Assembly: GCF_054482525.1 (NCBI RefSeq)
Contig: NZ_JBTHVG010000003.1
Length of the DNA stretch: 64,000 nt
Reading direction: 5' to 3' (one strand)
Source of the DNA: a plasmid
Below, in pieces: positions 2,379-29,000 of the stretch (position 1 is its first letter; every line of letters begins with the position of its first letter). Below the pieces are notes generated by a model. It did no database searches, had not been told where the DNA came from, and saw only the letters and a program-made list of their open reading frames with translations. The translations under genes were made by a program, and so were the position numbers.

Positions 2379-2400
2379 TTTATTGTTAATCATGCATGAG

Positions 2401-2412
2401 GGGGTTCATCCC
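2401..2412. repeat. Target-site duplication (GGGGTTCATCCC), left copy, flanking IS186
   Basis: The identical 12-mer occurs immediately outside both terminal inverted repeats (2401-2412 and 3750-3761). Confidence 0.7.
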
Positions 2413-3749: not shown

Positions 3750-3761
3750 GGGGTTCATCCC
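3750..3761. repeat. Target-site duplication (GGGGTTCATCCC), right copy, flanking IS186
   Basis: Same 12-mer as at 2401-2412, immediately outside the right inverted repeat. Confidence 0.7.
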
Positions 3762-3777
3762 CCTCTCTGGATTTTTA

Positions 3778-4095: not shown

Positions 4096-4106
4096 TGGAG
4101 CTATGA

Positions 4107-4895
4107 ATGAAAATGCTAAGTGGCATTAACATCCCTTTTTTCAAAAAATCTAAAAAGGATGAAAACGGTGATCTTGAACAGTCATACGTAAAGAAAGATG
4201 AAAGTGCTAAGGGACGTTTTTTGGACATTAAAAAACGATTTAGCCCACAAGCTGAAGCGTCAGGTGCTGGAATTACATACAGCGCCCTGATTAATCGTGA
4301 TACAAAACTTATCCGCATTAATACTGTTTCAATAGCCGTCATTGGGTTATTGGTTGCAAAGATTCTTTTTTTCACTGACCCAGTGACGATTGTTACCCCT
4401 CCAAACATGAATGAAGAGATCACGGTTGTTGGTAACAAAGCATCGGAATCTTATAAAACACAATGGGCTCTCTTTTTTAGTACCCTTTTAGGGAATATTA
4501 ATCCAACTAATATTTCCTTTGTGACGGCCTATGTCCTCGATGCCCTTTCACCTGAACTACAGGCTAAAACGAGTGAGTCTTTACAGGAGCAGATAAATAT
4601 CATGCAGGCTCGTGGTGTTGAGCAGACCTTTAAGCCTAATGATATTTACTTTGATCCAAAAAATGACATGGTCTATGTCTGGGGTACCAAAACGACTCGA
4701 CTTGTAAATGTTCCGGACAAAACTGAATCATCGAAATGGACTTATGAATGGGTTCTCGGGATGAAAAATGGTCGCCCAAGAATTGCATATGTAAATCAAT
4801 ATTCCGGAACACCGAATATTAAAAAAATTACGATAAACGGCAAAGAGCAACTGGCAACGCTGGATAATCCGCCACCGTCTACAGGTAACAAGTGA
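4107..4895 (+). CDS. traE: T4SS protein TraE-like (VirB5/TraE family), N-terminal membrane anchor
   Basis: 262 aa, one N-terminal transmembrane segment then a periplasmic domain. Position between traL and traK. GGAG ribosome-binding site upstream. Confidence 0.55.
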   Translation: MKMLSGINIPFFKKSKKDENGDLEQSYVKKDESAKGRFLDIKKRFSPQAEASGAGITYSALINRDTKLIRINTVSIAVIGLLVAKILFFTDPVTIVTPPNMNEEITVVGNKASESYKTQWALFFSTLLGNINPTNISFVTAYVLDALSPELQAKTSESLQEQINIMQARGVEQTFKPNDIYFDPKNDMVYVWGTKTTRLVNVPDKTESSKWTYEWVLGMKNGRPRIAYVNQYSGTPNIKKITINGKEQLATLDNPPPSTGNK

Positions 4896-8464: not shown

Positions 8465-9335
8465 AGGGCACCCAATAGTGAAAAAGTTACTTTTCCCTTT
8501 AATGGCGGCTTTCGCCATTATGGCGAATACGGTCACTTATGCTTCAGAGCAGGTCCTAACTAATAGTGATGCTGCTGCGTTAATGGCAAAGGCAAAGGAA
8601 GGCGGCGTTTCACCCAGTCAGATCTCGGGTGCGTTATCAAAAATGAAAGGATATAAACCTAAGGATGCCATATACATTCCTTCTGGTGGGCTATACCTCT
8701 TTCAGGACGAGCGTTCGCAGCTAATGGCAGTAACGACCGATGGCCGATACTCCCTTACTGGGGGAAGCCTTGTTGATGTAATTAAACGTAAACCTGTTCT
8801 GACTGTAGAAGAAATCAGAAATTCCTATTTTATTAGTCTTGATGAGGCCCCCTTCCCTCTGGAAACTGTAGCGTCCATTCATCTGGGAAATTCAAAGCTT
8901 AAGAGACAAGCAGCCATTTTCTTAACACTTGATTGTGACGGTTGCATGGAACTTGTTAAGAAATTTTATGCAGATCGGGACAAGTATCGGATAGATATTG
9001 TTTTAGTTCCCTCACCCGGTGAGCCAAAAGAAGAGCTTAGAAGGCTCTGGTGTAGTAAAGAAAAAGGAAAAATAAACAACCTCGATATTCTTCGTTGGCT
9101 AATGGGAAGCAAATCCGACATTGAAAAAAGATTGCTCTCTCAAAAAGAAGCAGAAGAATGTCCGGCGGAACCTTTGGTAGCGTCATTGATGCTCGCAGGA
9201 ATTTATAAATTGCAGGGTGTACCTTCAGTTGTCAGACAGGATGGTTTGGCTGGTAATGGCATTCCAAAAGATTTCGACTACTGGTTGAACCAAAGCGTTG
9301 AACCTCTCTTAAAAAATCCATTTGAGACAAATTAA
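8451..9335 (+). CDS. Thiol:disulfide interchange protein, DsbC/TrbB-like (CxxC)
   Basis: Signal-peptide-like N-terminus (KKLLFPLMAAFAIMANTVTYA) and a CxxC motif (LDCDGCMELVKK). Location inside a tra cluster, as for DsbC/TrbB homologues. Start is ambiguous: ATG at 8451 or GTG at 8478. Confidence 0.5.
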   Translation: MQRSRGHPIVKKLLFPLMAAFAIMANTVTYASEQVLTNSDAAALMAKAKEGGVSPSQISGALSKMKGYKPKDAIYIPSGGLYLFQDERSQLMAVTTDGRYSLTGGSLVDVIKRKPVLTVEEIRNSYFISLDEAPFPLETVASIHLGNSKLKRQAAIFLTLDCDGCMELVKKFYADRDKYRIDIVLVPSPGEPKEELRRLWCSKEKGKINNLDILRWLMGSKSDIEKRLLSQKEAEECPAEPLVASLMLAGIYKLQGVPSVVRQDGLAGNGIPKDFDYWLNQSVEPLLKNPFETN

Positions 9336-9344
9336 GGCTAGTTT

Positions 9345-10295
9345 ATGAACATCAAAAGATTGGTACTCAGTGCTCTGGTTGTAGGTACATCCTCATATCT
9401 TACGGGGTGCTCCATCGGGAGTTCCGAATCCGAATGTCCAGGCATTGAAAAGGGCGTTATCTGTAAAGGTCCTCGCGAAGTTATGGAGTTAACTAATAAT
9501 CGAGATGATCTGTCTGCACTTGCGGGGGAAGAGTCGGAATCGGGAAAGGAGAAATCGGCTGTCAATGACAGCCGTTATCCAACTGAAATTAGCCCTCCAG
9601 GGGAAGTCAAATATCCACAGTCTACAACCCTTAAAAATCAGCCTGTGGCTTATTCAAAAACCGAAATTAAGCCAGTTGGTCAGTTACCTGTCATGTACGA
9701 TAAAACTTTAAAAATGGGTGCCCCTACTTCATCCATTGGACCACGGCCTATTTCTGGTGTACCGGTTAATTCAAACGTAAGGATGACTAGCAGTTATAGC
9801 ACTGCCTCTTCAGCTGGTAACCCTTTCGTTCATCCGGCTGCGGAAGTCGTTAAACAAACAAGCTATCCGGTTTCTGCTGGAAATGCACCACGCTACGTTG
9901 CACCTAATTCTGATATCAGCCCTGGCAAGGATATGTACTCTCTTTACAATGGCCAGCCCGTTAACCCTACTCTCAACACTGGGCAGATCCAGCAATACCG
10001 TTCGCAAGGTTATAAACAAGCTGTAGTGGCTCCTGAACCACTTGCTGTTCTGCAACAGGGGAAAGTAATGAGAATTACTTTTGCACCTTATACCGATGAT
10101 AACGATGCGCTTAATCTTCCCGGCTACGTTTATGTCAACGTAAAACCGCAAACATGGATTGCTGGCAAGAATTCGACCTCAAACCCAGCTCGCATAGTTC
10201 CTTTAGAAGTACAGGATGCGGCCCGGGAAAATATGCAGCAGCAACAAAAAGCAACTAAAGCTGTCTCTTCGAACGGCATTGTTAGACAACTGTAA
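9345..10295 (+). CDS. traV: Outer-membrane lipoprotein TraV-like
   Basis: Lipobox (LTGC) after a signal peptide, Cys-containing N-terminal region, position immediately upstream of traC. Confidence 0.45.
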   Translation: MNIKRLVLSALVVGTSSYLTGCSIGSSESECPGIEKGVICKGPREVMELTNNRDDLSALAGEESESGKEKSAVNDSRYPTEISPPGEVKYPQSTTLKNQPVAYSKTEIKPVGQLPVMYDKTLKMGAPTSSIGPRPISGVPVNSNVRMTSSYSTASSAGNPFVHPAAEVVKQTSYPVSAGNAPRYVAPNSDISPGKDMYSLYNGQPVNPTLNTGQIQQYRSQGYKQAVVAPEPLAVLQQGKVMRITFAPYTDDNDALNLPGYVYVNVKPQTWIAGKNSTSNPARIVPLEVQDAARENMQQQQKATKAVSSNGIVRQL

Positions 10296-12985: not shown

Positions 12986-13012
12986 AGTAAATATCTTCAA
13001 GCAAAAACAATT

Positions 13013-13046
13013 AAACCAGATGTCTCATAAGAATCTGGTTTTTTAT
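13013..13046 (+). terminator. Putative intrinsic terminator after traC
   Basis: aaaccagatgtctcataagaatctggtttttt: hairpin followed by a T-run. Confidence 0.5.
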
Positions 13047-13379
13047 TGTATGCCTTAAGTAAACAAATGAGGTTATGACTTAATGAGTTCATCACTGTGC
13101 TGCAAATTTTGGTTTTATAATTAATATGGCTTAAAAACAGTGACATAATTACAAATCGCATTTAGGTTGTGTACGCATTAAGTAAACAAAATTTATAACA
13201 TCAATACTGACTTTATAAGATGAAATTCACGTAAATTACATTTTTGTTTACCAAAGGTAATCAAAGGAGCGCGGCATTATTAGTGAAAACAGATCACTGG
13301 TGTCATATTGCATACAAAACTTAATATCCTTTAATCATTCTTCTAAAAGTTTAATATTAACGCTTTGGTTTATGAAAAT

Positions 13380-16300
13380 TTATCCAATTTGCTCACCGAA
13401 GACTTTTAACTTATTTAACCCCCTTTATCGCCAATCTGTGATTTTCTAATGTTAGCCTACAGTTCTAGGGCCCTTGCTCCCATGATGCGAATCCTTCCAC
13501 CTAATAAAGATTAACGCCTCATTCCTGTATGCCGGTCTTACGACGCCAGTGCACGGACAATTTTTGGTCATCACAAGGCCAGGCGGGAGATTTAATCAGG
13601 GCGTGGTGTTCCTTAGCAGCAGCTGCGGCACTGTAAGCCGAAGGCGGAATTAACTCCTTTATCGCCATCTGGGGACGTCATTAGGGGTACCCCTTTTAAC
13701 TTGCTCAGGACCATTAAGCTAAAATTCCGGATAGTGATTGACGTAAGATTTAGGCTAAGCAGGTAAAGTGATCCCCGCTCCCGGGGTGACCACTTTATAC
13801 AAAAGGCCGATCGGAAGATTGTCCTTAGGGAAATATTCCTTTAACACAGCACGGGCACTTACTGCCGCTGCCGGATTTAACCCCCTTAATCGCCAAACTG
13901 GGGTACTGTCCTGATGCTGGCCTTCAGTTCTGGGCTGGGTGGCTATCACTTCCTCCCATAATGCGAAATGTAACTGCTGATACAGATTAACGTCATATTC
14001 CTGCGTGCCGGTCTGCCAACACCAGTGCACGGGCTTTTTTCGGTCATCACATTACCGGGCAGGAGATTTTATCAGGGCGTGGTGTGACTGAGCAGAAGCT
14101 GGGGCACTGTCAGCAGCTTGCAGATTTAACCCCCTTAATCGCCAAACTGGGATTCTGGTCTGATATTGACCTTCCGTGCTGGGCGGGGTTCGGTTTGCTA
14201 ACACTTACTCCCATGATACGAAATGTGCCTGCTGATACAGATTAAAATCACATTACTGCATACCGGTCTGCCGACACCGGTGCATGGGCGATTTCCGACG
14301 ATCTCAAGAACATATGGGAGATTATATCAGGGAGAGTAGTATGCCTGAGCAGCATCTGAAGGCACTGTCAGCCGCTGTCAGATTTAACCCCCTTAATCGC
14401 CAAACTGGTGTTCTGTCCTCATGCAGGCCTTCAGTTCTGAGCTGGGTTGCTATCACTTGCTCCCATAATGCGAAATGTACCTGCTGATACAAATTAACGT
14501 CGTATTCCTGTATGCCGGTCTGCCGACACCAGTGCTCGGGCTATTTTCGGTCCTAACAAGACCTGGCGAGAGATTTAATCAGGGCGTGGTGTGACTGAGC
14601 AGCAGCTGGGGCACTGTTATCCGCTTGCAGATTTAACCCCCTTAATCGCCACACTGGGGTTCAGTCCTGATAGTGTCCTTCCGTCCTGGGCTCGGTTGCT
14701 AACACTTGCTCCCATTGCGCCTGCTGATACAGATTAAAGTCACATTACTGCATACCGATCTGCCGACTCCGGTGCATGGCTTTTTCCGATAATCACAAGG
14801 ACGGACGGGTGATTTTATCGTTGCATAGTATGTCTGAGCAGCATCAGAAGGCTCTGTCAGCCACTGGCAGATTTAACCCCCTTAATCTCCAAACTGGGAT
14901 CAGTCCTGATAGTGTCCTTCCGTCCTGGGCAGGGTTGCTAACACTTGCTCCCATGATACGAAATGCGCCAGCTGATACAGATTAACGTCTCATTACTCCA
15001 TGCCGGTCTGCCGAAACTGGTGCATAGCTTTTTTCGATATTCGCATGAACAGACGCTTGATTTTTTCAGGTTGTAATATACCTGAGCAGCATCTGAAGGC
15101 ACTTTCAGTCGCTGTCAGATTTAACCCCCTTAATCGCCAATCTGGGATTTTCTGATGTTAACCTACAGTTCAAGGCCCTTGCTCCCATGATGCGAACCTT
15201 GCAACCTGATAAAGATTTAAGCTTCATTCCTGTATGCCGGTCTTACGACTCTAGTGCACGGGGACTATTTTCGGTCATAATAAGACCTGGCGGGAGATTT
15301 AATCAGGCGTGGTGTGACTGAGCAGAAGCTGGGGCACTGTCAGCCGCTGGCAGATTAAAACCCTTTATTCGCCATCTCAAGACGTCATTATGGGTAGTCC
15401 TTTTAACTTTCTAAGGACCATTAAGCTTAAACTCCGTTTAGAGAATGACGTAAGATTTAGGCTAAGCAGGTTAAGTGATCCCCGCTCCCGGGTTGAACAC
15501 TTTATTCATCGTACGAGCGAAAGATTGTCCTTCGGGAAATATTTCTTATACACCGCTCGGGCACTTACAGCCACTGGCGGATTTAACCCCCTTAATCGCC
15601 AAACTGGGGTACTGTCCTGATGCTGGCCTTCAGTTCTGGGCTGGGTGGCTATCACTTGCTCCCCTAATGCGAAATGTGTCTGTTAATACAGATTAACGTC
15701 ATTTTCCTGCGTGCCGGTCTGCCGACACCAGTGCACGGCCTTTTTTCGGTCATTACATTACCGGGCAGGAGATTTTATCAGGGCGTGGTGTTACTGAGCA
15801 GGAGCTGGGGCACTATCAGCAGCTTGCATATTTAACTCCCTTAATCGCCAAACTGGTGTTCTGTCCTCATGCTGGCCTTCAGTTCTGGGCTGGGTTGCCA
15901 TCTCTTGCTCCCATAATGCGAAATGTATCTGCTGATACAGATTAACGTCATATTCCTGTATGCCGGTCTGCCGACACCAGTGCTTTGGCTATTTTCGGTC
16001 ATAACAAGACCTGGCGAGAGATTTACTCAGGGCGTGGTGTGACTGAGCAGCAGCTGGGGCACTGTCATCCGCTTGCAAATTTAACCCCCTTAATCGCCAA
16101 ACTTGGGTTTTGTCCTGATGCTGGCCTTCCGTTCTGGGCGGGGTTGCTATCACTTGCTCCCATCATGCGAAAAGTGCCTGCTGATACAGATTAACGTCAT
16201 ATTCCTTCATGCCGGTCTGCCGACACCAGTGCTTTGGCTATTTTCGGTCATAACAAGACCTGGCGAGAGATTTACTCAGGGCGTGGTGTGACTGAGCAGC

Positions 16301-16700
16301 AGCTGGGGCACTGTCATCCGCTTGCAAATTTAACCCCCTTAATCGCCAAACTTGGGTTTTGTCCTGATGCTGGCCTTCCGTTCTGGGCGGGGTTGCTATC
16401 ACTTGCTCCCATCATGCGAAAAGTGCCTGCTGATACAGATTAACGTCATATTCCTTCATGCCGGTCTGCCGACACAAATGCACGGGCTTTTTTCGGTCCT
16501 TACAATACCGGGCAGGAGATTTAATCAGGGCGTGGTGTGACTGAGCAGCAGCTAGGACACTGTCAGCCGCTGGCAGATTTAACCCCCTTAATCGCCACAC
16601 TGGGGTTGCCTCCTGAAGTTGGGTTTCAGTTCTGGGCTAGGTTGCTAACTCTGCTCCCATAATTCGTAGTGGGCCTACTCAAGAGATTAACACCTCATAT
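13380..16700. repeat. Tandem direct-repeat array, about 14 units of about 221-259 bp (mostly 249 bp), with higher-order periodicity of about 1.7 kb
   Basis: Recurring block ...CAGATTTAACCCCCTTAATCGCCAAACTGG...GCTCCCATAATGCGAAATG...CTGCTGATACAGATTAACGTCATATTCCTG...GCCGGTCTGCCGACACCAGTGCACGG...GATTTAATCAGGGCGTGGTGTGACTGAGCAGCAGCTGGGGCACTGTCAG. Two adjacent units are identical (identical 69-aa track ORFs at 15985 and 16234, 249 bp apart). Segment 13400-13870 recurs at 15120-15580. Confidence 0.9.
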
Positions 16701-17070
16701 CTTTAGACTGGACTGACGACAACGATTCACAGTTAGGAAACGTAAATCAGCACACCGGTGAGATAGATTTTAGGGTCTAAGCAAGAAATAGGGTAGGCGT
16801 GAAGATTCATTAATGGAGCTCATAACGTCAAAGCGTAGAGAAGTCGACAAGAATCGTGGTTTAAAAAGAATGAGCATTAGGTATGGACTAGAGAGTCTGA
16901 GCTCTCATCTGCAAGTTAAGCTCACAAAAAATCATAAAAAAGTAAACAAACATTAGCTTAGGATTGAAACAAAGGATAGAATTGTACGTATAACAATGAA
17001 ATGGACGCATTATGCGTAAAGTTTACATATATGCGTAAAAGTCGGTTTTCAGTGCAAAAAGGTCATAACC

Positions 17071-18324
17071 ATGAATTTACTTGAAAAGATCGCCCTCGTT
17101 GGTCAGCGCATGAAAAGCGAGCAGATTTCTCTTAAGGAATCTCTGATGGCTTCATCAAGAGTATCTGTTTCTGATGATAGTGTTGATGGTGTTGATAGAC
17201 TGATCTACAACCACTGTTTAAATAAAAAAAATCTCTCTGATTTTTTTGGGAAGTCACGAGTAACGTTCAATAAAATACTTTCGGACTTAGAAGAAAAAGA
17301 AGTTGTTGGTGCACCTATTTATCAAAACAAAAATCATCTTTACACCCGCTGGGATGTTCAAAAAATAATGGATGCCCTGGGTTATCCCAAGTACCGCGAT
17401 CATTACTTTAGCAGAGCTATTGTTACTCAGAATCATAAAGGCGGTACAGGGAAAAGCACTACATCTGTAGCTTTAGCAGTAGCAGCTGCTTTAGATCTAC
17501 AACTGAATGCACGTGTATTAATGATCGAATGGGACCCACAAGGTTCGATTGGAAGCAGCATGATTCAAAGTGTCTCAGAAGATGATGTCTTCCTTACAGC
17601 AATTGATGCAATCCTTGGAATTTATGAAGAAAATTCTGAGTATAAAAAATATTTAGATTCAGGATTCTCTGAAGAAGAAATCATCACTAATATGCCTTTT
17701 TCAACGCATCTGCCAAACTTGGACGTGATAACGGCATTTCCGACAGATGCTCGTTTTAAAGATAAATACTGGCAATGTTCTAGAGAAGAACGAACGTCTT
17801 TGTTACTACGTTTCAAGGAAGTTATCTTACCGGTACTGAAGCAGAACTATGATTTGATTATTATAGACACTCCACCTGAAGATTCACCTTTGATCTGGGC
17901 TGCTGACGAAGCGGCCGATGGGATTCTTGTCGCAGTGTCACCACGTGAATATGATTACGCCTCTACTACAGACTTCATGCTTACAATAAGTGAAAGGTTT
18001 AAACAATCACCAAGTAAGGGCGATAATTTAAAATGGTTCAAAGTTCTTGCTGTCAATGTTGATGACAAAAGTCCATATGAAAGAATAGTTTTGGATAAAT
18101 TAATCAGAACTGTTCAGGACCTTTTGATGTCCGCTAACATAAAAAATTCTGAAGCATTTAAGGCAGCTGCTTCCAAAGGGCGTACAGTGCTTGATATCAA
18201 AAAATCAGAGGAACTTTGTTCCGCAAAGCAACTTGATGTCGCAGAAGAATCTGTATTACAGGTATATCAACAATTTATAAATGAAATAAAAAGTTTTTCA
18301 GCTAAGCAAGGAGTTAACGCATGA
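17071..18324 (+). CDS. parA: Partition ATPase ParA (type Ia, with N-terminal HTH extension)
   Basis: 417 aa. Deviant Walker A (KGGTGKSTT). Size and N-terminal extension as in P1 ParA / F SopA. Stop overlaps the parB start. Confidence 0.85.
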   Translation: MNLLEKIALVGQRMKSEQISLKESLMASSRVSVSDDSVDGVDRLIYNHCLNKKNLSDFFGKSRVTFNKILSDLEEKEVVGAPIYQNKNHLYTRWDVQKIMDALGYPKYRDHYFSRAIVTQNHKGGTGKSTTSVALAVAAALDLQLNARVLMIEWDPQGSIGSSMIQSVSEDDVFLTAIDAILGIYEENSEYKKYLDSGFSEEEIITNMPFSTHLPNLDVITAFPTDARFKDKYWQCSREERTSLLLRFKEVILPVLKQNYDLIIIDTPPEDSPLIWAADEAADGILVAVSPREYDYASTTDFMLTISERFKQSPSKGDNLKWFKVLAVNVDDKSPYERIVLDKLIRTVQDLLMSANIKNSEAFKAAASKGRTVLDIKKSEELCSAKQLDVAEESVLQVYQQFINEIKSFSAKQGVNA

Positions 18325-19325
18325 GCGATGAGCAACATATCGGGAATGATAAATCTCGATATTTAAACGCACCAAAGCGGACAGAAGTCGGTCACCGTTC
18401 AGGTCTTGCGGGTTTGAAAACAGCACCTCGCATAAAAAAGTTATTCACTCTTCATAAGGGCCGAAGACTTGAAGCGGAACATGTGATTGTTCCAGCCCAG
18501 AGAGTGGAGAAGGAGACCTTAGTCCATCCAGCAAACCCACGAAATCAAGAAGCCCTTACAGATTATTCTGTTAGAGATATTCTTAAGCAGATTGAAGAAA
18601 GAGGGGTCGATACCGAAGGGATCGCTGTAAAAAGAGATGGGGTTTATTTATTAATAGAAGGAAGTCGCAGACGTTTCTGCTGTATAAAGGCAGAAAAGGA
18701 TCTCCCCCTGTGGGTACTACCGGATGAACTAACCGAAGATGATATAAATTCAATTATATCCGCAGCACAAACATCTCGAAAATTTTCATATAGAGAAGTT
18801 GGGTTTCAATTTATCAAGAAAATGGAAGAAAAGGGATTTTCTACTAATGAAGAACTCGCAGCATATCTTGGGATTAGTCATGTATCGGTAGCCAAAAGAA
18901 TCCAGGCGGCACGTATTGACGAAACATTGATCTCTTTATTCCCGGATTATGAAGGAATACCGAACTCCTATTATAGTCGCTTGTCTCGTTTACAGAAATA
19001 TGTGCAAAAAAATCTATTTCCTTTAGATGAAGTAATAGATAATGTTAAAGAGGAAACAAAAGATTTAGACATTGGAGATCTCCAAGTTGCCCAAAAAGTT
19101 GTAATGGAGAAAATCACACAATCTGTGGAAAGTGTTTGTGAAAAATCTTATTCCACAAAATGGGAAACAAGTGATCTTATTACTTTTGATAACAAAGATA
19201 AGTATGCAAGAATCAGTAAAAACAATACTGGAAGAAAAATTCGCATTGAATTCAATAGGATAAGTGCGGGTTTTATTAAGGAGCTAGAGGAGTTCATAAA
19301 AGAAAAATTAAAAGTATCAGAATAA
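18321..19325 (+). CDS. parB: Partition protein ParB-like
   Basis: 334 aa. ParB-box-like GSRRRF motif (LLIEGSRRRFCCI). ATGA overlap with parA. Confidence 0.65.
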   Translation: MSDEQHIGNDKSRYLNAPKRTEVGHRSGLAGLKTAPRIKKLFTLHKGRRLEAEHVIVPAQRVEKETLVHPANPRNQEALTDYSVRDILKQIEERGVDTEGIAVKRDGVYLLIEGSRRRFCCIKAEKDLPLWVLPDELTEDDINSIISAAQTSRKFSYREVGFQFIKKMEEKGFSTNEELAAYLGISHVSVAKRIQAARIDETLISLFPDYEGIPNSYYSRLSRLQKYVQKNLFPLDEVIDNVKEETKDLDIGDLQVAQKVVMEKITQSVESVCEKSYSTKWETSDLITFDNKDKYARISKNNTGRKIRIEFNRISAGFIKELEEFIKEKLKVSE

Positions 19326-19386
19326 ATATTGAACTGCATCTTTATGATGCAGTTCATATGATTTATATTTTTAATTTCTTGTTATA

Positions 19387-19776
19387 TTAATATGGGGTGT
19401 GCGCAGGTTCAGACATATAAGGTCTTAGTTCTATATGAACAGAAGCGCCATTCCCATCATTTACTACGTTTAAAGGTGCTTTGCCCGGCAATGACATAGT
19501 TGCAACGTCAGGTCCAGAAACAGCAAAATTATTTTCTGCTGAAGGCATTACTGTAAAAATCTTTATAGCAACATTTTCATGTCTAAATAAAGAAATCCCA
19601 AAAGTAGAACCAGCTTCGGTATTGCTCACGTCCACAACCACAGGGGTTTTTCCTAGATATTCATTAGTTAGTATGTTTTTTACTAATGCCCCTTCCGGGA
19701 CAGTATAGATACGGTATGGATATGCTAAAACTGAGTGACAAAAACATAATAAAATAACAATTAATGTTTTTTTCAT
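19387..19776 (-). CDS. Hypothetical secreted protein
   Basis: 129 aa with a signal peptide (MKKTLIVILLCFCHSVLA). Last gene of a four-gene minus-strand operon. Confidence 0.4.
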   Translation of the reverse strand: MKKTLIVILLCFCHSVLAYPYRIYTVPEGALVKNILTNEYLGKTPVVVDVSNTEAGSTFGISLFRHENVAIKIFTVMPSAENNFAVSGPDVATMSLPGKAPLNVVNDGNGASVHIELRPYMSEPAHTPY

Positions 19777-20294
19777 AGATTATCCTCATTCAAAAATAAA
19801 AGATATAACTCTTGAAAATCGTGGTTATTAATTAGGTCCGCTTTTCCGGGAAAATCGTAACTAACAGAAAATAAAAGAGAAAGAGAATCTTTTCCTTTTG
19901 CTTTGGGAGAGATTCTGCTAAAAGCACGGTTAATAAACATAAGTTGATCTTCATTGTTGAAGCAAAGTCCAAGCATTCCAACCGTAGGAACTACGAATGT
20001 GCTTACGCTGCCTGGGGGCAAAAGTTGCTTACTACGGGCATTGTAAGCACAACGACTACCACCTAGCGTTAGGCCTGAAAGCTCAATAAAACTTCTGGTT
20101 CCATTCTTGGCGACAAGCCAAACATCAGTTCCTGAACTTTCGACACGTAAAGTAACTTTTCCGTCAGTAAAGGCCTCACTTTTATTGTATAGAATAGGGT
20201 CAAAACCAACTGTCGGGAGTTCTTCGATTTTACTTTCTACTGACTGACAACCAGTCAGTAATGCAAACAATAAAAGTGTGATAACTTTAATCAT
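19773..20294 (-). CDS. Hypothetical lipoprotein
   Basis: 173 aa, lipobox LLTGC. Overlapping start/stop with both neighbours. Confidence 0.4.
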   Translation of the reverse strand: MIKVITLLLFALLTGCQSVESKIEELPTVGFDPILYNKSEAFTDGKVTLRVESSGTDVWLVAKNGTRSFIELSGLTLGGSRCAYNARSKQLLPPGSVSTFVVPTVGMLGLCFNNEDQLMFINRAFSRISPKAKGKDSLSLLFSVSYDFPGKADLINNHDFQELYLLFLNEDNL

Positions 20295-21123
20295 CCCGCT
20301 TCCTTAGATTGTTTTTGGCGCTGGTTATAAAAGATAATGATTCACCGGGGTAGAGAATTGTTTCTTTCGTCCAATAACGATAACCACCGAGGATATCTTT
20401 TCTTTTCTCAATATAAACCGGTTCAGAAAATTCTAAATGTTGATATTTCGGAAGAGATAAGATTTTATATTTTACTTGTCCAACTAAGAGGTAATTCTTC
20501 TCTTTAGGATTGATGGTTACTGAATTACCAACACTTTGAGGTATGTTAAGTTTTTTTATATTTAGATCAGAATCGTCAGGAACGGACACTTGATCATTAG
20601 ATGTCTTTCCGGGAAGAGTAAACCCTTTACCCTGATCCGGTCCAAAGATGGCAATTACATCTTTGTTGTTTCTTGTGATCGAAACGATAGCCTGAAGGGG
20701 CGTATTAGCAAGGTCATTTATAAACGATATAGTTATACTTGATTTAGGCTCGACCCAAATAATGCTTTTTCCGGATGTGCCTTCGCTTAATGCAATTTTT
20801 TCATTTAGTAAGATTTTATTTTTGGCAATGATATTATACTCAAGTTTCGGTATCACCATAAAAAGTGATTCTTTATTTGAAACATTCATGATTTCTAAGA
20901 AATTGGTTTTGGTCATGCTGGTCTTTAGAACAGGCCTATATTTACCATTTATAAACCACCTTCCGTTTATAAGCTCCGCTTTAGCAGATATAAGTGAATC
21001 ACTTTTCTGAGCGGCAGAAGAAAAAGCATCTTTTCTTTGCTCTTTCTCTTGATGTGGTGCAGCTGCTGCGTGAAGATGCAAAAGTAATGTTGAAATTGAG
21101 ATAATCTTCCATTTTATCTTCAT
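20287..21123 (-). CDS. Hypothetical secreted protein
   Basis: 278 aa, N-terminal signal peptide. Overlaps both neighbours. Confidence 0.4.
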   Translation of the reverse strand: MKIKWKIISISTLLLHLHAAAAPHQEKEQRKDAFSSAAQKSDSLISAKAELINGRWFINGKYRPVLKTSMTKTNFLEIMNVSNKESLFMVIPKLEYNIIAKNKILLNEKIALSEGTSGKSIIWVEPKSSITISFINDLANTPLQAIVSITRNNKDVIAIFGPDQGKGFTLPGKTSNDQVSVPDDSDLNIKKLNIPQSVGNSVTINPKEKNYLLVGQVKYKILSLPKYQHLEFSEPVYIEKRKDILGGYRYWTKETILYPGESLSFITSAKNNLRKRDD

Positions 21124-22067
21124 CTTGTTACCTCAATGTTGTTTTCAATCGAATCGAGTTCTAACGGATAGGTTTTAAGTGAATAAAACTTGTTTGTTGT
21201 TTGTATTAGCTGATGACACAATAAAACTGGATTGTTCTTCATGATTATTTCTACTAATGTAAGTGCTGGTGAGTCAGTTGGCGGTATACCCGGAGCAACT
21301 ATTACCTGGTCTTCTAATTTTGACATATAGAGTGATCCAGTATTTATATGTAAACAATTACCGATCAGTACTGGAAGATTGTTTTGAGTACGACCATGGG
21401 CTTTTCGAATGCTGTTTACAGGATTCCTACCTAGGACCATAAGGTTGACGTCATTTATCATCATTGGTATTACGGCATGGTCCATACCGAATAGAAACTG
21501 GCTCTGAAAAATATTCACATTGGCATAGTTGAATGCTTGAAGCGCATTATAAGTATCAGTGAATGATGTGCGGATAGGGGCGTAATCAGAAGGGCAAACC
21601 CCAATTTTTATATCGCCTTTGAGTAAAATCTGCATCATCGTACCAAGCTGGGTATTAAGAAGTTTTTTTATCTCTTCCTCTAAATAGTAACGATTTACAG
21701 CTTTATGCCACTTTCCGCCCATTACACACCATCTCTCATTGAGGTATGTGCTGGGGTAAAATGTTCTCCGGTCTTTGTTTAATGGTAACAATTTTTTTAA
21801 CATTTCTTCTCCGGCTCCGGCAGCTGAGAAATGCCTCACAAAACGTCCATCGAAAAAGCCACTGTTTATCGCCTTCATCAACTCTATGGGTTCCGGCCCA
21901 TAGTCAAACAAATTTCCAGTAGAGAAAATTACTATCTCTTCTTCTGGCTTTGTAACTGATTGAATCAAGTTGCACAGCGCAGAGTAATGTCCATGAGGAT
22001 CTGCCAGAAAGAAAATCCTTCCCGAGAAGTTTGTAAGGTCTATAGTTTGGACGTGCTCAGCTGCCAT
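21120..22067 (-). CDS. Calcineurin-like (PPP-family) phosphoesterase homologue, possibly catalytically degenerate
   Basis: 315 aa. N-terminal FFLADPHGHY aligns by eye to the GDxHG motif of lambda-type PPP phosphatases. The GDxVDRG and GNHE equivalents look substituted (GNLFDYG; AGAGEE). Confidence 0.45.
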   Translation of the reverse strand: MAAEHVQTIDLTNFSGRIFFLADPHGHYSALCNLIQSVTKPEEEIVIFSTGNLFDYGPEPIELMKAINSGFFDGRFVRHFSAAGAGEEMLKKLLPLNKDRRTFYPSTYLNERWCVMGGKWHKAVNRYYLEEEIKKLLNTQLGTMMQILLKGDIKIGVCPSDYAPIRTSFTDTYNALQAFNYANVNIFQSQFLFGMDHAVIPMMINDVNLMVLGRNPVNSIRKAHGRTQNNLPVLIGNCLHINTGSLYMSKLEDQVIVAPGIPPTDSPALTLVEIIMKNNPVLLCHQLIQTTNKFYSLKTYPLELDSIENNIEVTR

Positions 22068-22430
22068 AAATTCCTCTACGTATGTTTACATCGATGATAC
22101 GGTATTTCGAGCTATGATTTTTTTACATAAAGGCGTCATTTTGGATTCTAAGCCTAAGGACCTTTGTTACTTACTGGTAAAGGCTCCAGTCCTGGCTCTC
22201 AAACAGTTCATACTTAGGATGCAAAGTAACTTTCTGATTATAATTGGCTCCTTTATAAACATGTTTACTTCATGAATACAGGATATTTAACGGTAATGTA
22301 TTTAAAATGGAAGGATGCTGAAATAACATAGAGTTACGTATTTTTTTAATAGTGTTGATGTTGATAATAGGTCACCATTAATGTATAAAGTTAATATCTA
22401 ATATGGTCCTATTAATAAAAGAGAGTTTTT

Positions 22431-23468
22431 ATGGCTGAACTATTAAAATCTGAAAGTCCTGTTTCACAATCATTGCAGGATATCACTGAAGCTTTAAAAA
22501 TCGTTGTCGATGATGGAAGTAAAGCTGCAAAACTGGTTTGTCTTAATGAAAGAAACGAATTAGTTCCCTTGCTCACACAAAATAGTTTTGTTCCAGATTT
22601 CCGTGTTCGCCATGAGGGTCTCAATCCTTTTAACTATCTTATTGATGGGCTGGAAAGGTTTTCGCATCACAGCGAATCTAGTAACTCACTGGAATCGACT
22701 GATGTATCTCACCAATACGATGAAATTAGCCGGTTAAATGTTCACCATGCACTTCATGCTTCTGGTTTAGTTCCTCAGGATGTTCACCTCTTTGTTACTT
22801 TACCTCTTAGCCAGTTCTATACTGCTTTAGGGGAAACGAATATTGAAAATATTCAGAGAAAAAAAGATAACCTGATGAAACCAGTTGAGCGTTATCTTGA
22901 CGGTAAACGCTATTCTTTCAACGTTTTGTCTGTGACTGTTTTCCCTGAATCTTTACCAGCTGTGACCCGGGCAGATGAAATTGAGGATATTGCTTCATTT
23001 GAATCAAGTTTGGTAATTGATCTTGGTGGTACTACTCTTGATGTTGCAAGTATTACTGGGCAATTAGAACAGATTTCGAAAGTAAAAGGTTTTGACCGTA
23101 TTGGTTGTTCTATTGTTTACGATGAGATCAGCAGGTATCTTGAATCTGAGAAACTGAATACGAGTAATGCTTACATTCATCATCTTGTTGATAATCGTCA
23201 TGATAAATCAGCTTTGAAGGTTGCAGAGGACAAGCGTGACGGTGTTTTTGATGCGGTAAACTCTGCGGTACAGAAGTTGCAAAGTAAAGTAATCAGAGCG
23301 GTTACACAAGTCGAAGAGAGGCCTCATAATGTTTTCCTTGTTGGGGGAGGTTCATATCTCATCGAAACAGCTATTCGTAAACATTTTGAAACGGCTAAAG
23401 TTATCATGGTAGACAATCCGCAGTTCGCATTATCTTTGGCAATTGCTGATACTATTTATTCAGAATAA
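22431..23468 (+). CDS. parM: Actin-like segregation ATPase ParM/StbA (type II partition)
   Basis: 345 aa. Actin-fold phosphate motifs (IDLGGTTLD; VFLVGGGSY). Followed by a small putative adaptor gene. Confidence 0.75.
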   Translation: MAELLKSESPVSQSLQDITEALKIVVDDGSKAAKLVCLNERNELVPLLTQNSFVPDFRVRHEGLNPFNYLIDGLERFSHHSESSNSLESTDVSHQYDEISRLNVHHALHASGLVPQDVHLFVTLPLSQFYTALGETNIENIQRKKDNLMKPVERYLDGKRYSFNVLSVTVFPESLPAVTRADEIEDIASFESSLVIDLGGTTLDVASITGQLEQISKVKGFDRIGCSIVYDEISRYLESEKLNTSNAYIHHLVDNRHDKSALKVAEDKRDGVFDAVNSAVQKLQSKVIRAVTQVEERPHNVFLVGGGSYLIETAIRKHFETAKVIMVDNPQFALSLAIADTIYSE

Positions 23469-23479
23469 TGAGCTAGAAC

Positions 23480-24118
23480 ATGGCTAAAAACCCTATCTCA
23501 AATAAGGCAGATAACGACCGGATTCAGATCCGGTCTTTCTGGATATCCGAAAGAAAAGCACCCTATGTTTATAGTTTCTTGAAAAAAACAGAACTTTCTC
23601 ATAGGGGTGACCAACTGGATTTAATTAGGTCGGCTATTAGTACCGGGTTGGTATTGAATAATTTATTTCCTGACTTGGCAAATTTTATAAATGGTTTAAA
23701 CGAAAGATTAACACTTGCAGATCTTAATAGGTTTCTGAATGATGGAAATACTATAGATACTGAACCTAAGCCTCCTATTAATGTATTGCTAGAGAATGTC
23801 TTAGATCAAAAGTTTAAGGAGTATTTAACACCTCTACAATTAGATAATTCAAAGCAGGATTCTGTTTCTGTAAAAGAAACCTTCCTTGTACAAAAGGAAC
23901 ATGCCTGCTTTGGTGTGAAGATTGAAAATGAGGGAAGCGATACCTCTATACCATCTGAAAGCCCACTTTCTTCAGATGCATCCAAAATTTCAAAAGAAAA
24001 GTCCATTTCCGCTGTGGTGCCAGTGCTAGAAAAAGTATCGGATGAAAATCAAACCGCCTCCATAAGCATAAAATCTAAAGCTAAGGCAAACAAGCGACTG
24101 GCAACTTTGGCAAGATAG
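23480..24118 (+). CDS. parR: Putative ParR-like centromere-binding adaptor
   Basis: 212-aa ORF immediately downstream of parM with a K/S-rich tail. Assignment by position only. Confidence 0.4.
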   Translation: MAKNPISNKADNDRIQIRSFWISERKAPYVYSFLKKTELSHRGDQLDLIRSAISTGLVLNNLFPDLANFINGLNERLTLADLNRFLNDGNTIDTEPKPPINVLLENVLDQKFKEYLTPLQLDNSKQDSVSVKETFLVQKEHACFGVKIENEGSDTSIPSESPLSSDASKISKEKSISAVVPVLEKVSDENQTASISIKSKAKANKRLATLAR

Positions 24119-24166
24119 GTGAGAGACAGTACAATCGACTTCTGAGTTCCAACTTGTCTTACCAGG

Positions 24167-24196
24167 AAAGCCAGCATACTTGCTGGCCTTTTTTTT
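24167..24196 (+). terminator. Putative intrinsic terminator after parR
   Basis: gccagcatacttgctggc hairpin followed by a T8 run. Confidence 0.5.
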
Positions 24197-24521
24197 GTTA
24201 TAATAATTTCAGGCTTCACCTGGGTATGTAAAATTACTGTTAATGAAACGGTATTTTAGGTTAATTTGGGTGCTGTTACAGGAAGTGCGGATTTTTCCTA
24301 AATTTGTAAAAAACCTAAGAATTATCTTAATAAATCTGGTACTTAATTATTATTTTACTTATAAAGTCTCTGTGCTTTAATGGTTATGTAAGGATTTTTT
24401 GATACCCTTATACCCGATGGACCTAAGGTCACTGACAACGATGTTCATGTAGAATCTTCGTTTCTGTAATCCCTTTTGTTCTTGTCCCAAATGTTTGATT
24501 ATTATAATAAAGGCTGATCGA

Positions 24522-24974
24522 ATGCTATCTCGCAACTCACTAATACATGGTTTACGCCGAGACCAGTTAATCGGAGTTCTGACTATTTCAGAGTTTCCGG
24601 TAGTTATGGTAGAAAGCCACTTCATTCAGTCTGAGGTTATGGGAATAAAACCCGTAATTTTTAATATTGATGAGCTTCTTGTTTCTATATCCCCAATTTC
24701 CTCTCTTAAGTTCGATTGGGAGTGGGCCCCAGTTGATACAATACTCATTGAAGTTATCATTCCACCTGTAGAGTCAGACCTTGTAAGTGCAGAAAATGAC
24801 TTCCTCCGTGATTCTGGTATCGGCCATATCCAGTGCGAGCCTGGCGGAGCATCAATACGACGTACAGTTACCTTCGTTGGTGGAATAACCGCTGATAACT
24901 TACTGTATCAGTTGAGGCTTATGTGCGTAAGTGCGTTAAAACTTTTAGGAGAGGAACTGGGGGATGAAGTCTAA
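24522..24974 (+). CDS. Hypothetical protein
   Basis: About 150-aa ORF; start chosen at the internal ATG with an upstream AAGG. Confidence 0.3.
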   Translation: MLSRNSLIHGLRRDQLIGVLTISEFPVVMVESHFIQSEVMGIKPVIFNIDELLVSISPISSLKFDWEWAPVDTILIEVIIPPVESDLVSAENDFLRDSGIGHIQCEPGGASIRRTVTFVGGITADNLLYQLRLMCVSALKLLGEELGDEV

Positions 24975-25389
24975 GATTAGATATGTTTTATCTGGTTTTG
25001 TTGTGATATGTGCATTTGCTGGAGTTTATAAAATCCTAAACAATGTTCCGGTTAAACCTGACCTTTTGGACTTCACTGGAAACACATTTAAAAAGACATC
25101 ACTCTTCCTGCCATGTGATAAAAGCTCGCCTTCTTTAAACATTAAAATTGCTGATAACGAGAAAATCGTGATCAACGGCATCGCTTCAAAAGTAACTTTT
25201 GTTGAAAAGGCTGACCCCGTCAAAAGCCCTGGTTTTTGTGATGATCTTGATCTAAACAATTCTCGCCTTGTACATACGGCATCTTACAGCATGGTGATTT
25301 CTGAAACCAAAACAGGATATACACTCTCAAATTTCAAGCATCTTGCCGATGATGAATCATTAGGTGGTATGTGGTTTTATCAAAAGTGA
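24964..25389 (+). CDS. Hypothetical secreted protein
   Basis: 141 aa with an N-terminal hydrophobic signal-like segment. Confidence 0.3.
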   Translation: MKSKIRYVLSGFVVICAFAGVYKILNNVPVKPDLLDFTGNTFKKTSLFLPCDKSSPSLNIKIADNEKIVINGIASKVTFVEKADPVKSPGFCDDLDLNNSRLVHTASYSMVISETKTGYTLSNFKHLADDESLGGMWFYQK

Positions 25390-25397
25390 CTTTTTAT

Positions 25398-25952
25398 ATG
25401 GCAACTTCAGACTTCTCTCTTAAAAACCATAATGTAAAAGCTTTTGGTCAGGATGCAGCACTTGTCATTGAGATGAACAATGAAGATGTTAGCTCATCAA
25501 AACCTTCACCTTTTTCAAATGAGATTGATAATTATTATCTTACATTGCACGTCGCTCCGAGGAACGCCAAAAAAGATTATGACTGGGGCTCAAACCGTTC
25601 TGTACTTCTAAAATTGTCGACGAATGAAGTTATGCAGATGGCATCTGTATTTCTTAGAATCATGCATACTTTAAAAATTGATAAGAGGAAAACCTCACAT
25701 CATGGCCACGTCGTATACAAAAATATAAGCGTTACCCCAAACGAGAGGGGCGGTTTGTTGTTATCAGCAGGGATAGTTCCAGTCGATAAAGACGGCTTAA
25801 AACCCTTCATGCACATGGTCCCCGTCTCACAAATGGACTGCGTTAAAATTGGCCTCTACATACTTGGATATCTTGCTCAAAAAACGCCTTGGGTAAGCTC
25901 CGAGTCTATAATTACCGCGCTTCGCTTATCTGAAGCCAAGAATTCAAAATAG
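25398..25952 (+). CDS. Hypothetical protein
   Basis: About 184-aa ORF. Confidence 0.3.
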   Translation: MATSDFSLKNHNVKAFGQDAALVIEMNNEDVSSSKPSPFSNEIDNYYLTLHVAPRNAKKDYDWGSNRSVLLKLSTNEVMQMASVFLRIMHTLKIDKRKTSHHGHVVYKNISVTPNERGGLLLSAGIVPVDKDGLKPFMHMVPVSQMDCVKIGLYILGYLAQKTPWVSSESIITALRLSEAKNSK

Positions 25953-26071
25953 CGTATTAACATACGGAATACATGGAAAAATACAGGTTTTTTTAAATAT
26001 TATACGAACGGATATTTCTGTTTTTCATCGTAAAGTGAGTTTAATTTTGCTCAGAAAAACAGGTATTCGTC

Positions 26072-29000
26072 ATGAGAAAATCAGGTTTAGGTTTAGCCCT
26101 GTTGTTTTCTTTAATTGCTCCGATTAAAGCGGTCTATGCCGAAGCGATTATGATTTCAGGAAAGCTACAGGCTGATTTGCCAGCCGTATCCTTTGACCCG
26201 GGGCCGGGCGACTTTGTTGCATACGTTAATTCTAACACTATCACTGCCTCAGGTGCAGGCACAGCCTGTAATGTAACGGTTGATGATCGAGCGACTTCCT
26301 CTGTTGATAACCTCGTTTGTTTTTTTGAGTGGTTACCCAATACCTTGGGATTTACTTCTAACGGTTTCACTCTTTCAGGCGTTCCCAACACCACCGGTGA
26401 TTTAAAACTACCTTACAAGATTTCTTACTTCTCTGGTTCTGAACGGAAAAAAGTTGAAATAGTAAAAGGTGAATATTCAATCAAAAGTGTGGCACCGGTA
26501 AAACCTACTATCACCGGTCTTAAATCATCCCTGAACGGATTAGTCTATGACGGCTTTTCTTTCAAATCGTATTTAAAGGATGAAGCGATCAAAGATATCG
26601 CTGTTTCTGTTGAGCCCCGCAATTATATTCAATACATCTCAATAGGTTCAGGCTCCGCCTGTGAAGTTCCTATTGGCGGAACTTCCTGTACCATTGAAGT
26701 TGGAAGCATTAAGGCCAGTGATACAGATGAACTTTTGGGTTCACGTGATATCACAATTACAGCAAACTCTAAGAATAATTATTTCGCACCTCCTGAATCC
26801 AAAAAGCTTGTTGTTAACTGGGATTATCGGCCTCCTGTAGTAGACCATACACTTTGGAATTTTACCGATGAGGCTAAAACAATCAAAGTAGGTGGCCAGG
26901 ACATCTATACCGGAGCCAAAACCGTTGCTGTGGCCGTTAAGGTACCCCAGCAAGAAACAGAAGGTGAATGGTGGCTCCCAACAGCTATGTCGCTCACTAT
27001 GACTCCGGATGGCGTGTTTAAACCGACGACTAAAGTGACTTTAGATGATGGCACTGAGATTGATTTCAAACAGTCCTGGGCAACCCCTTTACGTAGAACT
27101 TTACAGCCGGTAAGTGGACCTCAAAAAGTCGGTGATGAGTACCTCTATATCTTCGACTTAACGGATCTTATAAACGGGTCCTACGCAGCGACTTTTACAG
27201 TAGAAAATACGAGCAAAAACTCTTCTACGTACACTGAGCCTGAAAGCAAACTGATGCTGTCTGATAACCCAACGCTTATGGTTCTCAAAGATGGGCAGGT
27301 ATTAACTAAACGAGCACCCGTATACTTCCTGAACGAGATTATCGTTGCAGCTTTCCAGGGGCAGGCTGGGGTTGCTGACATAAAATCAGTAACAATAGAC
27401 AACAAAGTAGTTTCGTTAACACCTACAAATTATAGAGGTATTTACTACCTGCCGGTTGGAGACGATTTAGCAGTTAATTCGGATCACGAGATTACTGTGG
27501 TGGCTGAAAACCTTTATGGAAAAAACGTTAATTTCAGTACCGTTTTCACTTATCAACCTACTGGATTCACTCTCAAGAATCTGGAAAAAAACGTAACTCT
27601 TTACTCGCGTGTACGTCAGTATACGGACCTGCTTAGTCAAACAGCTGGTGATAAATGCACTCTGTTTACCACAGAGGAAAATGCGAATGCTTACCTCGCC
27701 TGGTATGGGGAAAAATCAGATGTTACAGCATGCTACCCTCAGTGGAACAATGTCCCTGATGGGTTGGAGTTCTATTTTAAAGGACGTACCCCGGGTCTAA
27801 CTGGATTCTTTAATAAAACAGGTGAGAATCTGCTCGACTATCAAGTCTATATGATTAACGGGAAGGGCTCTAAAGCGGTATCCGCAAGGAATCGCCGTAC
27901 TCTGACCACACAATTACCATACAACCCGATCATCTCTTACAAAAAGAATAAAGTCATAGCTGGCATCAATCCGAACACTGCTCTGGCTTATACGACCGGG
28001 GGGGAGGCCGCTCGAATATTAGCGAAGGTGGTACCAGCTGACGTTACGATGATCGTCTCTCAAAACGGCTCTGAGGCTGTCAAAACGTCATTTAAAAATC
28101 GTTCCTCAAACAACGATGCAACGACCTTTGTACAAAGGGTTAAGGTTGCTGCTGCACCATTGTGGACAAAGAACGTCTTTGACATAGCTGTAGAATACTC
28201 AAAGGATCCAGAATTAAGAACTACAGACACACTCAACGTATATACGGTGCCTGATTTCAATATTCGAGCATCGATGGAAGTGGATGACAGAAAAACAGCC
28301 ACATCTCTTGAAGTGCCCTTAAAGGTAACAGTGGGGCGTTATAACAACTCCACACGTAAAAGTGCATTTGACCGTAAAACAATGGGAGAATGGGACGTCA
28401 CGATATACTCGCAAAAAAGTGTATACGGCAAAGATCCAGAAACAGGCCGTTATAAAACTACATACGAAAGAACTGCGCTGACTGAAGCATTGCCGGTCAA
28501 TGATGCGGGCATTGTCGAAACCAAGATTAAAATTGAAAATATGGATCTGGGTAATATGCGTCTGGTTGGTGTGGCTAAGGTCAGATCGCCATTCTCTGAT
28601 TTTGAAATGAAACGTGAGACCAGTGCTGTAGGCATTCGAATCTATAAAGGTGAGGAACTGGAGGGTAACCTGTCGAAAAGCCTTATTATCGGAAGGATCC
28701 CACTTAGTACTCTGGTAAGCTTCAAATCTGCCAGTACTGCTAACTCTGACGCACTTGCCCCCACCGAATGGCAGCAGTCCTCTGATAATGGTCAAACCTG
28801 GAATATGCTTTCCGACATGACCGGAAAGAGAAGTGTAAGTATCAAAAAGACAGAAGTAGGAAAGTGGCTTTATAGGGCAAAAATGACCAATAAATTCACA
28901 TCTAAGGTTTCCTACACAGATGCCTTAACGGTAGTTACCTACAAGCAGCCTAAGCTCAGTATAGATGTGACAGACATTCTTCAGGGCTCAGATGTACCTG

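Follow-up and report, generated by a model that had tools for sequence, protein, structure and literature searches.

A double partition locus in the Tra2 region of an IncHI2 plasmid and a candidate Par1 centromere upstream of parA

The plasmid sequence analysed here, a window of 64,000 nucleotides from contig NZ_JBTHVG010000003.1 (assembly GCF_054482525.1), holds two sets of partition genes inside a conjugative-transfer region: parA and parB, and further downstream parM with a candidate parR. Taken as a whole, the region is best explained as the IncHI double partition locus on an IncHI2 plasmid, orthologous to the Par1 and Par2 systems of R27, a reading to which a probability of about 85% is assigned. 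An array of 21-bp core sequences between trhC and parA is, to judge from its sequence and its conservation, probably the Par1 centromere.

The lineage was established by nucleotide identity and by synteny. A query of 8 kb (16500-24500), searched against plasmid records, matched 1130 of them, 1128 at an identity of at least 95% and 680 at an identity of at least 99%; the hosts were chiefly Escherichia, Salmonella and Enterobacter. The par region of the window is 100% identical to hundreds of IncHI2A records, and all inspected records, whether 100% identical or variant, were typed as IncHI2A, MOBH and MPF_F. In a representative 100%-identical record the upstream neighbours are traL-traE-traK-htdO-trhB-htdT-trhV-trhC and the downstream neighbours htdA-rsp-trhF-trhW-trhU-trhN-trhI, which identifies the window as the Tra2 region of an IncHI2 plasmid. 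The original prediction, made by a model from the sequence alone, had described two partition systems embedded between blocks of type IV secretion genes. Such blocks are indeed present on both sides, with traL/E/K, trhB, trhV and trhC upstream and htdA, rsp, trhF, trhW, trhU and trhN downstream.

The same gene order, trhC, gap, parA, parB, four minus-strand genes, parM, parR and htdA, is found in R27 (NC_002305), where the gap is unannotated and 3.1 kb long, the four genes are likewise on the opposite strand and the gene following parM is an open reading frame (ORF) of 225 amino acids. The proteins of the window share 89% (ParA), 72% (ParB), 80% (ParM) and 42% (the product of the ORF downstream of parM, the candidate ParR) of their residues with those of R27. 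Synteny and identity with the IncHI references thus place the backbone in IncHI, and the lineage and the double-partition reading of the original prediction both stand. Papers that all refer to Lawley & Taylor 2003 and Gilmour et al. 2004 (PMC4489591; PMC12317039; PMC13245405) describe the major partition system of R27 as type I and its minor one as type II, and IncHI2 plasmids as equipped in the same way; the systems on IncHI2 plasmids are given as ParABS and ParMRC (PMC4489591; PMC13245405; PMC12317039). A contribution of the R27 orthologues to plasmid stability was shown experimentally (PMC4489591; PMC12317039). The double arrangement in the IncHI Tra2 region is already known, and the closest known systems are Par1 and Par2 of the IncHI1 plasmid R27 (Lawley & Taylor 2003) together with their counterparts on the IncHI2 plasmid R478 (Gilmour et al. 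2004). Common to the window and R27 are the Tra2 gene order, the orthologous proteins, the 21-bp core and the palindrome of the likely parA operator. The two differ in the array unit (about 249 bp x 13 in the window, 52-54 bp x 24 in R27), in the spacers, which are unrelated, and in the linker of ParR, which has diverged. According to the literature, plasmid pB171 likewise unites partition systems of types I and II. The pB171 loci, however, are adjacent and divergent, share centromere regions and include a type I system of type Ib, whereas the modules of the window are 3 kb apart with an unrelated operon between them and the type I system is of type Ia.

Par1 is a type Ia system by its ATPase. 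ParA carries a deviant Walker A motif (KGGTGKST, residues 123-130) and an N-terminal extension of about 110 amino acids, and it matches AAA_31 (E 2e-20), CbiA and the ParA_partition model NF041546 (E 7e-25). The alignments to V. cholerae ParA2 (7npd, E 4e-37), P1 ParA (3ez2, E 2.8e-12) and P7 ParA (3ez9) start at about residue 63, at 63-64 for the first two; since this is well before the Walker A motif, the N-terminal extension of type Ia proteins is present. Both hallmarks of the type, the deviant Walker A motif and a size of around 400 amino acids including an N-terminal regulatory helix-turn-helix (HTH) extension, were found. ParB contains a GSRRR ParB/Srx motif, an HTH and a P1-like C-terminal dimer/B-box domain, and matches PF08775 (E 3.8e-11), TIGR00180 and, over its residues 150-330, the half of P1 ParB that binds DNA (1zx4, E 3.6e-16; 2ntz, E about 4e-16). 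A large HTH protein with a C-terminal dimer/B-box domain is characteristic of the P1par subfamily. All four par genes, parA, parB, parM and the ORF of 212 codons, lie on the plus strand where the original prediction had located them; Pfam and PDB searches agreed with its description of ParA as Walker-type with an N-terminal extension, of ParB as P1-like and of ParM as actin-like.

The gap between trhC and parA is 3.8 kb long in the window and unannotated. It encloses a tandem array of about 3.3 kb (Tandem Repeats Finder, TRF: period 249 bp, 11.6 copies), which lies directly upstream of the segment covered by the original prediction and was overlooked there. The statement that the centromeres are not obvious held for Par2 but needs correcting for Par1, for which the array is a strong candidate. 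The core of the array is the 21-mer ATTTAACCCCCTTAATCGCCA, repeated in 13 direct copies with a unit of about 249 bp; an additional degenerate copy is located near 13648. At up to three mismatches the 21-mer has 12 matches in the window, with 0.00 expected from 100 shuffles, and at up to four mismatches it has 13. Every copy is on the parA strand, and the remainder of the 64-kb window contains none. When the units were aligned, the 21 core columns formed the sole essentially invariant run and the most conserved block of the unit; the IncHI2 unit has a further 228 bp of conserved sequence outside the core. Among the additional conserved blocks of the 249-bp units are CTTGCTCCCATAATGCGAAA and GAGATTTAATCAGG, and IncHI1 units are just 52-54 bp long. 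The array also shows a higher-order duplication, with 13413-13874 resembling 15119-15580 (13652-13801 and 15359-15508 are 85% identical). An interpretation as clustered regularly interspaced short palindromic repeats (CRISPR) was rejected because the spacers resemble one another, and a coding function was rejected because no ORF spans the units; among the ORFs overlapping 14000-28000, the longest one inside the array has about 91 codons. An Rfam scan of 13000-25000 yielded no matches.

The identical 21-mer is present 24 times in R27, spaced at 52-54 bp and always in the orientation of parA. Over the whole of R27 (180,461 bp) all copies of the core are confined to the trhC-parA gap, and even the 10-mer TTAATCGCCA, with 22 copies, is restricted to it. 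An IncHI1B-like plasmid has 12 copies upstream of parA at a spacing of 54 bp. In a sensitive blastn comparison of the IncHI2 gap with the R27 gap, only cores of about 25 bp and a segment of 110 bp just upstream of parA could be aligned. Spacers that have diverged past recognition around an identical core are the footprint of selection on the core, and the information content was maximal on the core in every lineage compared. From IncHI1 to IncHI2 the 21-bp core has stayed the same, in contrast to the copy number and the length of the unit (52, 54 or 249 bp), which vary freely.

The core resembles the centromere of P1. The annotated P1 parS (NC_005856) contains ATTTCAAGGTGAAATCGCCACGATTTCAC, which consists of an A-box, an inverted A-box and the B-box TCGCCA. 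The P1 parS core ATTTCAAGGTGAAATCGCCA and the IncHI core both start with ATTT, both have a layout of inverted arms and both terminate in AATCGCCA, which includes TCGCCA; in the IncHI core, ATTTAAC is followed by CCCC and then by TTAAT, which overlaps TCGCCA. The comparison with P1par-type sites thus gives an identical B-box and an A-like inverted pair, while an IHF consensus is not conserved in the units. The C-terminal domain of P1 ParB contacts the B-box (1zx4). As the array core carries the P1 B-box and ParB has a C-terminal domain of the P1 type, ParB is the likely ligand of the array.

A diverged relative provides a further comparison. In the lineage of pFB2.1 and pJNKPN52, which are IncHI-related Klebsiella/Pluralibacter plasmids, ParA is 64% and ParB 48% identical, and parAB is located among large genes for Ig-like-domain proteins and not beside trhC. 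In pFB2.1 two arrays of 66-bp repeats with the variant core AAACAACCCCGTTGTTCGCAG enclose parAB, about 19 units preceding parA and three following parB; the conserved block of the arrays in this lineage, GTGAAAACAACCCCGTTGTTCGCAG, is a variant of the same pattern. The two pFB2.1 arrays occupy 4544-5923 and 9194-9349 of the compared stretch. Substitutions in the pFB2.1 ParB affect the recognition helix of the HTH and the C-terminal segment. Variant arrays beside a diverged parAB indicate that the repeats follow parAB and co-vary with ParB.

Several observations weigh against the array as the Par1 centromere. Centromeres of the P1 family are usually located downstream of parB and include an IHF site. 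In the window the candidate lies upstream of parA; the absence of clear repeats downstream of parB, which the original prediction had recorded, was confirmed, as merely 61 bp with a bidirectional terminator hairpin are found there in place of a P1- or F-type centromere, and no IHF consensus is conserved among the array units. The IncHI2 record pS802-MCR (NZ_MW495059) moreover lacks the array and the parA promoter, yet its parA and parB are identical to those of the reference IncHI2 record. Instead of a centromere, the array could be a neutral satellite or a set of sites for some other plasmid factor, for example one that regulates transfer or controls replication or a nucleoid-associated protein, the true parS being a single inconspicuous site elsewhere. 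Besides the atypical position and the IncHI2 record entirely without the array, two observations speak for such an origin: the hypervariability of the gap, of which the segment 13200-17100 is at least 99% identical in just 13 of 1129 IncHI2 records (680 of 1130 over the par genes), and a G+C content of 49.6% in the array (13400-16700) as opposed to 37-41% in the flanking genes. We nevertheless regard it as unlikely. A neutral array is difficult to reconcile with a core that is 100% conserved between lineages whose spacers cannot be aligned, and replication sites with a core that is near no rep gene in the window and does not recur elsewhere in R27. The pFB2.1 arrays accompany parAB rather than trhC, the variant core co-occurs with a diverged ParB, and the P1 B-box hexamer in the core is matched by the P1-type C-terminal domain of ParB.

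In pS802-MCR the whole trhC-parA gap, including the promoter and operator of parA, is replaced by 4.3 kb of other DNA (1701-6037 of the compared stretch) with 0 parS-like cores. The replacement is 100% identical to a Pseudomonas putida ND6 plasmid and was found in only three E. coli records, pS802-MCR among them. It is either a rare recombinant, with a natural deletion of the putative centromere, or an assembly chimera, and was not counted as evidence against the array as parS. Two other IncHI2 plasmids contain 10 and 13 cores.

The positions of the array, the par genes and the associated features are compiled in Table 1.

Table 1 Features of the double partition locus and its surroundings (positions refer to the 64-kb window)
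Feature	Position	Strand	Evidence
Candidate Par1 centromere (parS array)	13413..16700	+	TRF, repeat families, shuffle test, R27 comparison
Core starts in the array	13413, 13875, 14124, 14382, 14631, 14871, 15119, 15354 (degenerate), 15581, 15830, 16079, 16328, 16577	+	
parA promoter/operator region	16928..17070	+	Sequence, conservation in R27 and IncHI1B-like plasmid
parA, type Ia Walker-type partition ATPase, 417 aa	17071..18324	+	Pfam, PDB, NCBIfam, R27 89%
parB, P1-type centromere-binding protein, 334 aa	18321..19325	+	PF08775, 1zx4, TIGR00180, R27 72%
Bidirectional terminator hairpin between parB and the convergent four-gene operon	19330..19356	.	
Four-gene operon	19387..22067	-	Translations, Pfam, synteny
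Divergent intergenic region with parM promoter	22068..22430	+	Sequence, alignment of 3-4 lineages
parM, actin-like segregation ATPase, 345 aa	22431..23468	+	Pfam, PDB, R27 80%
parR candidate adaptor, 212 aa	23480..24118	+	11 bp downstream of parM, R27 42%, alignment architecture
parMR intrinsic terminator	24170..24187	+	

A conserved palindromic element lies between the array and parA. Half-sites in alternating inverted orientation, ACGCAT-T-ATGCGTAAA-G-TTTACATAT-ATGCGTAAA, cover about 17005-17040, 30-65 bp before the parA start codon. The duplicated TATGCGTAAA that the original prediction had pointed out at this place is real, and exact copies of ATGCGTAAA occur in the 64-kb window at 17012 and 17031 alone. 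The block is kept in R27, in the version TATGCGTAAACTTTACGCAT x 2.3, and in the IncHI1B-like plasmid; in the pFB2.1 lineage the equivalent place upstream of parA is taken by another palindrome. The half-sites are likely an autoregulatory operator bound by the HTH of ParA, comparable to P1 parOP.

Par1 is best explained as a ParABS system of type Ia and of the P1 family in which ParB dimers would load on 13 P1-like parS cores, each composed of an A-box-like inverted pair and the B-box TCGCCA and situated 0.5-3.7 kb upstream of parA. The Walker ATPase ParA would move the ParB-parS partition complex over the nucleoid, and its N-terminal HTH, bound to the half-sites, probably represses the operon. 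With P1 parABS it shares a type Ia ParA with N-terminal HTH and a ParB with HTH and a C-terminal dimer domain of the B-box-binding type; the likely palindromic operator and, in the candidate cores, the layout of A-box, inverted A-box and B-box TCGCCA would be further common features. P1 differs in having one composite, IHF-bent parS downstream of parB, whereas the window has 13 simple tandem cores upstream of parA; the A-boxes read ATTTCAA/TGAAAT in P1 and ATTTAAC/TTAAT in IncHI. The sopABC system of F is also of type Ia, and its centromere, like the candidate array, consists of tandem direct repeats with one binding site each, sopC comprising 12 repeats of 43 bp. Unlike the candidate array, sopC is downstream of sopB; SopB does not have the P1-type B-box domain, and ParA of the window is only weakly similar to SopA (NF010259, E 1e-7).

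A literature search for an IncHI parS or for a description of the repeats returned nothing usable, the primary R27 partition paper lying outside the search. That the array is the Par1 centromere and, as such, has so far gone unreported for both R27 and R478 is proposed only tentatively. On the same tentative footing, an array that serves as parS might represent a previously undescribed architecture for a P1-family ParB, in which 10-24 minimal A/A'/B-box cores follow one another as direct tandem repeats ahead of parA and IHF plays no part, and the variant core in the IncHI-related Klebsiella/Pluralibacter lineage may be a co-evolved form of it.

Par2 was recognized by ParM. The protein matches the StbA_N domain (E 1e-66, 224 bits), the ParM C-terminal domain (E 2e-60, 204 bits) and R1 ParM (1mwk, E 2.7e-43), and the phosphate-1 (DDGS, residues 27-30), phosphate-2 (DLGGTTLD) and adenosine (VGGGS) motifs are intact. 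It is a bona fide member of the ParM family and not a non-partition actin homologue, the finding that the original prediction had named as fatal to its reading; an actin-like ParM ATPase is a mark of the type II systems of the R1 class. The product of the ORF that follows parM is conserved in an N-terminal domain (residues 1-90) and in a basic C-terminal tail (KAKANKRLATLAR), and the linker between the two is variable and of low complexity; conservation towards the R27 orthologue is found in the first 90 or so residues and at the extreme C-terminus. The ParR family of R1 and R100 is built on the same three-part plan. Homologues of the ORF are solely of IncHI type, and one source labels one of them ParR. 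In R27 the junction between the parM stop and the parR start (18771-18809 of the compared stretch) contains a perfect 16-bp repeat, TGCAAAACCATCATCA x 2.4, which is absent from the 11-bp gap of IncHI2.

By sequence, the ORF is tied only marginally to the ParR family of R1. Searches of Pfam and NCBIfam returned no family match at E <= 0.01, and no PDB match was better than E 0.3. A weak similarity to PF10784 was seen in 7 of 11 members of the ORF family (best E 0.066). Hhalign comparisons with R100 ParR, alone and as a family alignment, aligned 28-29 columns in the second helix at E 0.007-0.01, and AlphaFold2 models reached a predicted local distance difference test score of 48 for the monomer and 40 for the N-terminal-domain dimer fused into a single chain, both models being of poor quality. 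A k-mer test, which detected the R100 parC iterons as a positive control, found no iterated parC motif above shuffles upstream of parM in any of the plasmids examined (IncHI2, R27, IncHI1B-like). Nor did an iterated motif rise above background when 16700-24600 was scanned in a sliding manner, and downstream of parR and parB there was nothing but terminators. The weak repeats that the original prediction had seen upstream of parM do exist but do not exceed chance, and the search it suggested there for iterated operator repeats had the negative outcome given above.

The region upstream of parM is conserved in other respects. The parM promoter comprises TTGATA (22361-22366), a 17-nt spacer and TATAAA (22384-22389), and TGTTGA and TGTATAAA are invariant in the lineage alignment. 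Inverted arms at 22365-22380 and 22399-22414 lie around the -10 box and the ribosome-binding site, and their hexamers co-vary, with ATTAAT...ATTAAT in IncHI2 and ATTGGT...ACCAAT in R27. These arms, the sole lead to a Par2 site, are a possible ParR operator. As a corollary of the tentative proposal for Par1, and held with equally low confidence, Par2 might dispense with an iteron parC of the R1 type and use another kind of ParR site. As a ParMR system of type II, Par2 would employ the N-terminal domain of ParR for DNA binding and the C-terminal tail for binding ParM; ParR would couple the plasmid to ParM filaments, which would push sister copies apart, and the centromere would presumably be at or near the conserved parM promoter. 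R1 and R100 parMRC are similar in that the actin-like ATPase ParM precedes a small adaptor, conserved in its N-terminal domain and its C-terminal tail, and in that a promoter lies upstream of parM. They differ in that R100 parC is made up of about ten 11-bp iterons flanking the promoter, of which the IncHI region has none, and in that the candidate ParR of IncHI has double the length and is only marginally homologous to PF10784.

Two other interpretations of Par2 were considered. Par2 might have no centromere of its own beside parM. ParR would then act either at an operator without iterations or within the large array, and the two systems would have one centromeric region in common. The lack of repeats above background in 16700-24600 despite the positive R100 control is compatible with this, as are the 228 bp of further conserved sequence in the IncHI2 unit. 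The units of R27 and the IncHI1B-like plasmid, by contrast, are just 52-54 bp long with divergent spacers and leave no room for a second conserved site, although the N-terminal domains of ParR are conserved across these plasmids; the conserved blocks and co-varying arms at the parM promoter also favour a local site, and this interpretation as a whole is regarded as improbable. Least credible is the view that parM and the downstream ORF form an actin-like cytoskeletal or transfer module co-opted by Tra2 or by the exported-protein operon, since the missing iterated parC, the absence of database matches to the ORF at the thresholds given and the linkage of the four-gene operon to parMR in Photorhabdus, where parAB is absent from the locus, are outweighed by an end-to-end strong ParM-family match with intact ATPase motifs, by a downstream protein that is ParR-like in architecture with weak PF10784 similarity in the 7 of 11 members, and by the stability function of the R27 orthologues reported in the literature.

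The two par modules are separated by an operon of four genes on the minus strand. The products are a signal-peptide protein of 129 amino acids, a lipoprotein of 173 amino acids (lipobox LLTGC), a signal-peptide protein of 278 amino acids and a calcineurin-like phosphoesterase of 315 amino acids (Metallophos, E 4.9e-5); all NCBIfam matches were below threshold. A role as a defence system was rejected, as PADLOC gave no matches. The operon is conserved in R27, in the IncHI1B-like plasmid and in a Photorhabdus plasmid, where it is linked to parMR, and it belongs to neither par system. A comparative study of IncHI plasmids places eexB, an exclusion gene, between parA and parM (bioRxiv 10.1101/334409), and EexB is an outer-membrane protein (PMC11493245). 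On account of this position and localization, one of the four genes is probably eexB.

As the double arrangement is textbook knowledge for R27, the finding chiefly confirms the lineage of the plasmid. Its added value consists in a specific, testable candidate for the Par1 centromere and in the documented lack of a canonical parC. The hypervariable array is a potential marker of the variable-number tandem repeat type for subtyping otherwise identical IncHI2 backbones. It may also explain the poor assembly and missing annotation of the gap in databases and could be a hotspot of short-read misassembly. IncHI2 plasmids depend on these par loci for their stability and rank among the major carriers of resistance genes, mcr included. 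The 21-bp site could be used as a direct target for binding and incompatibility tests or for plasmid-curing decoys.

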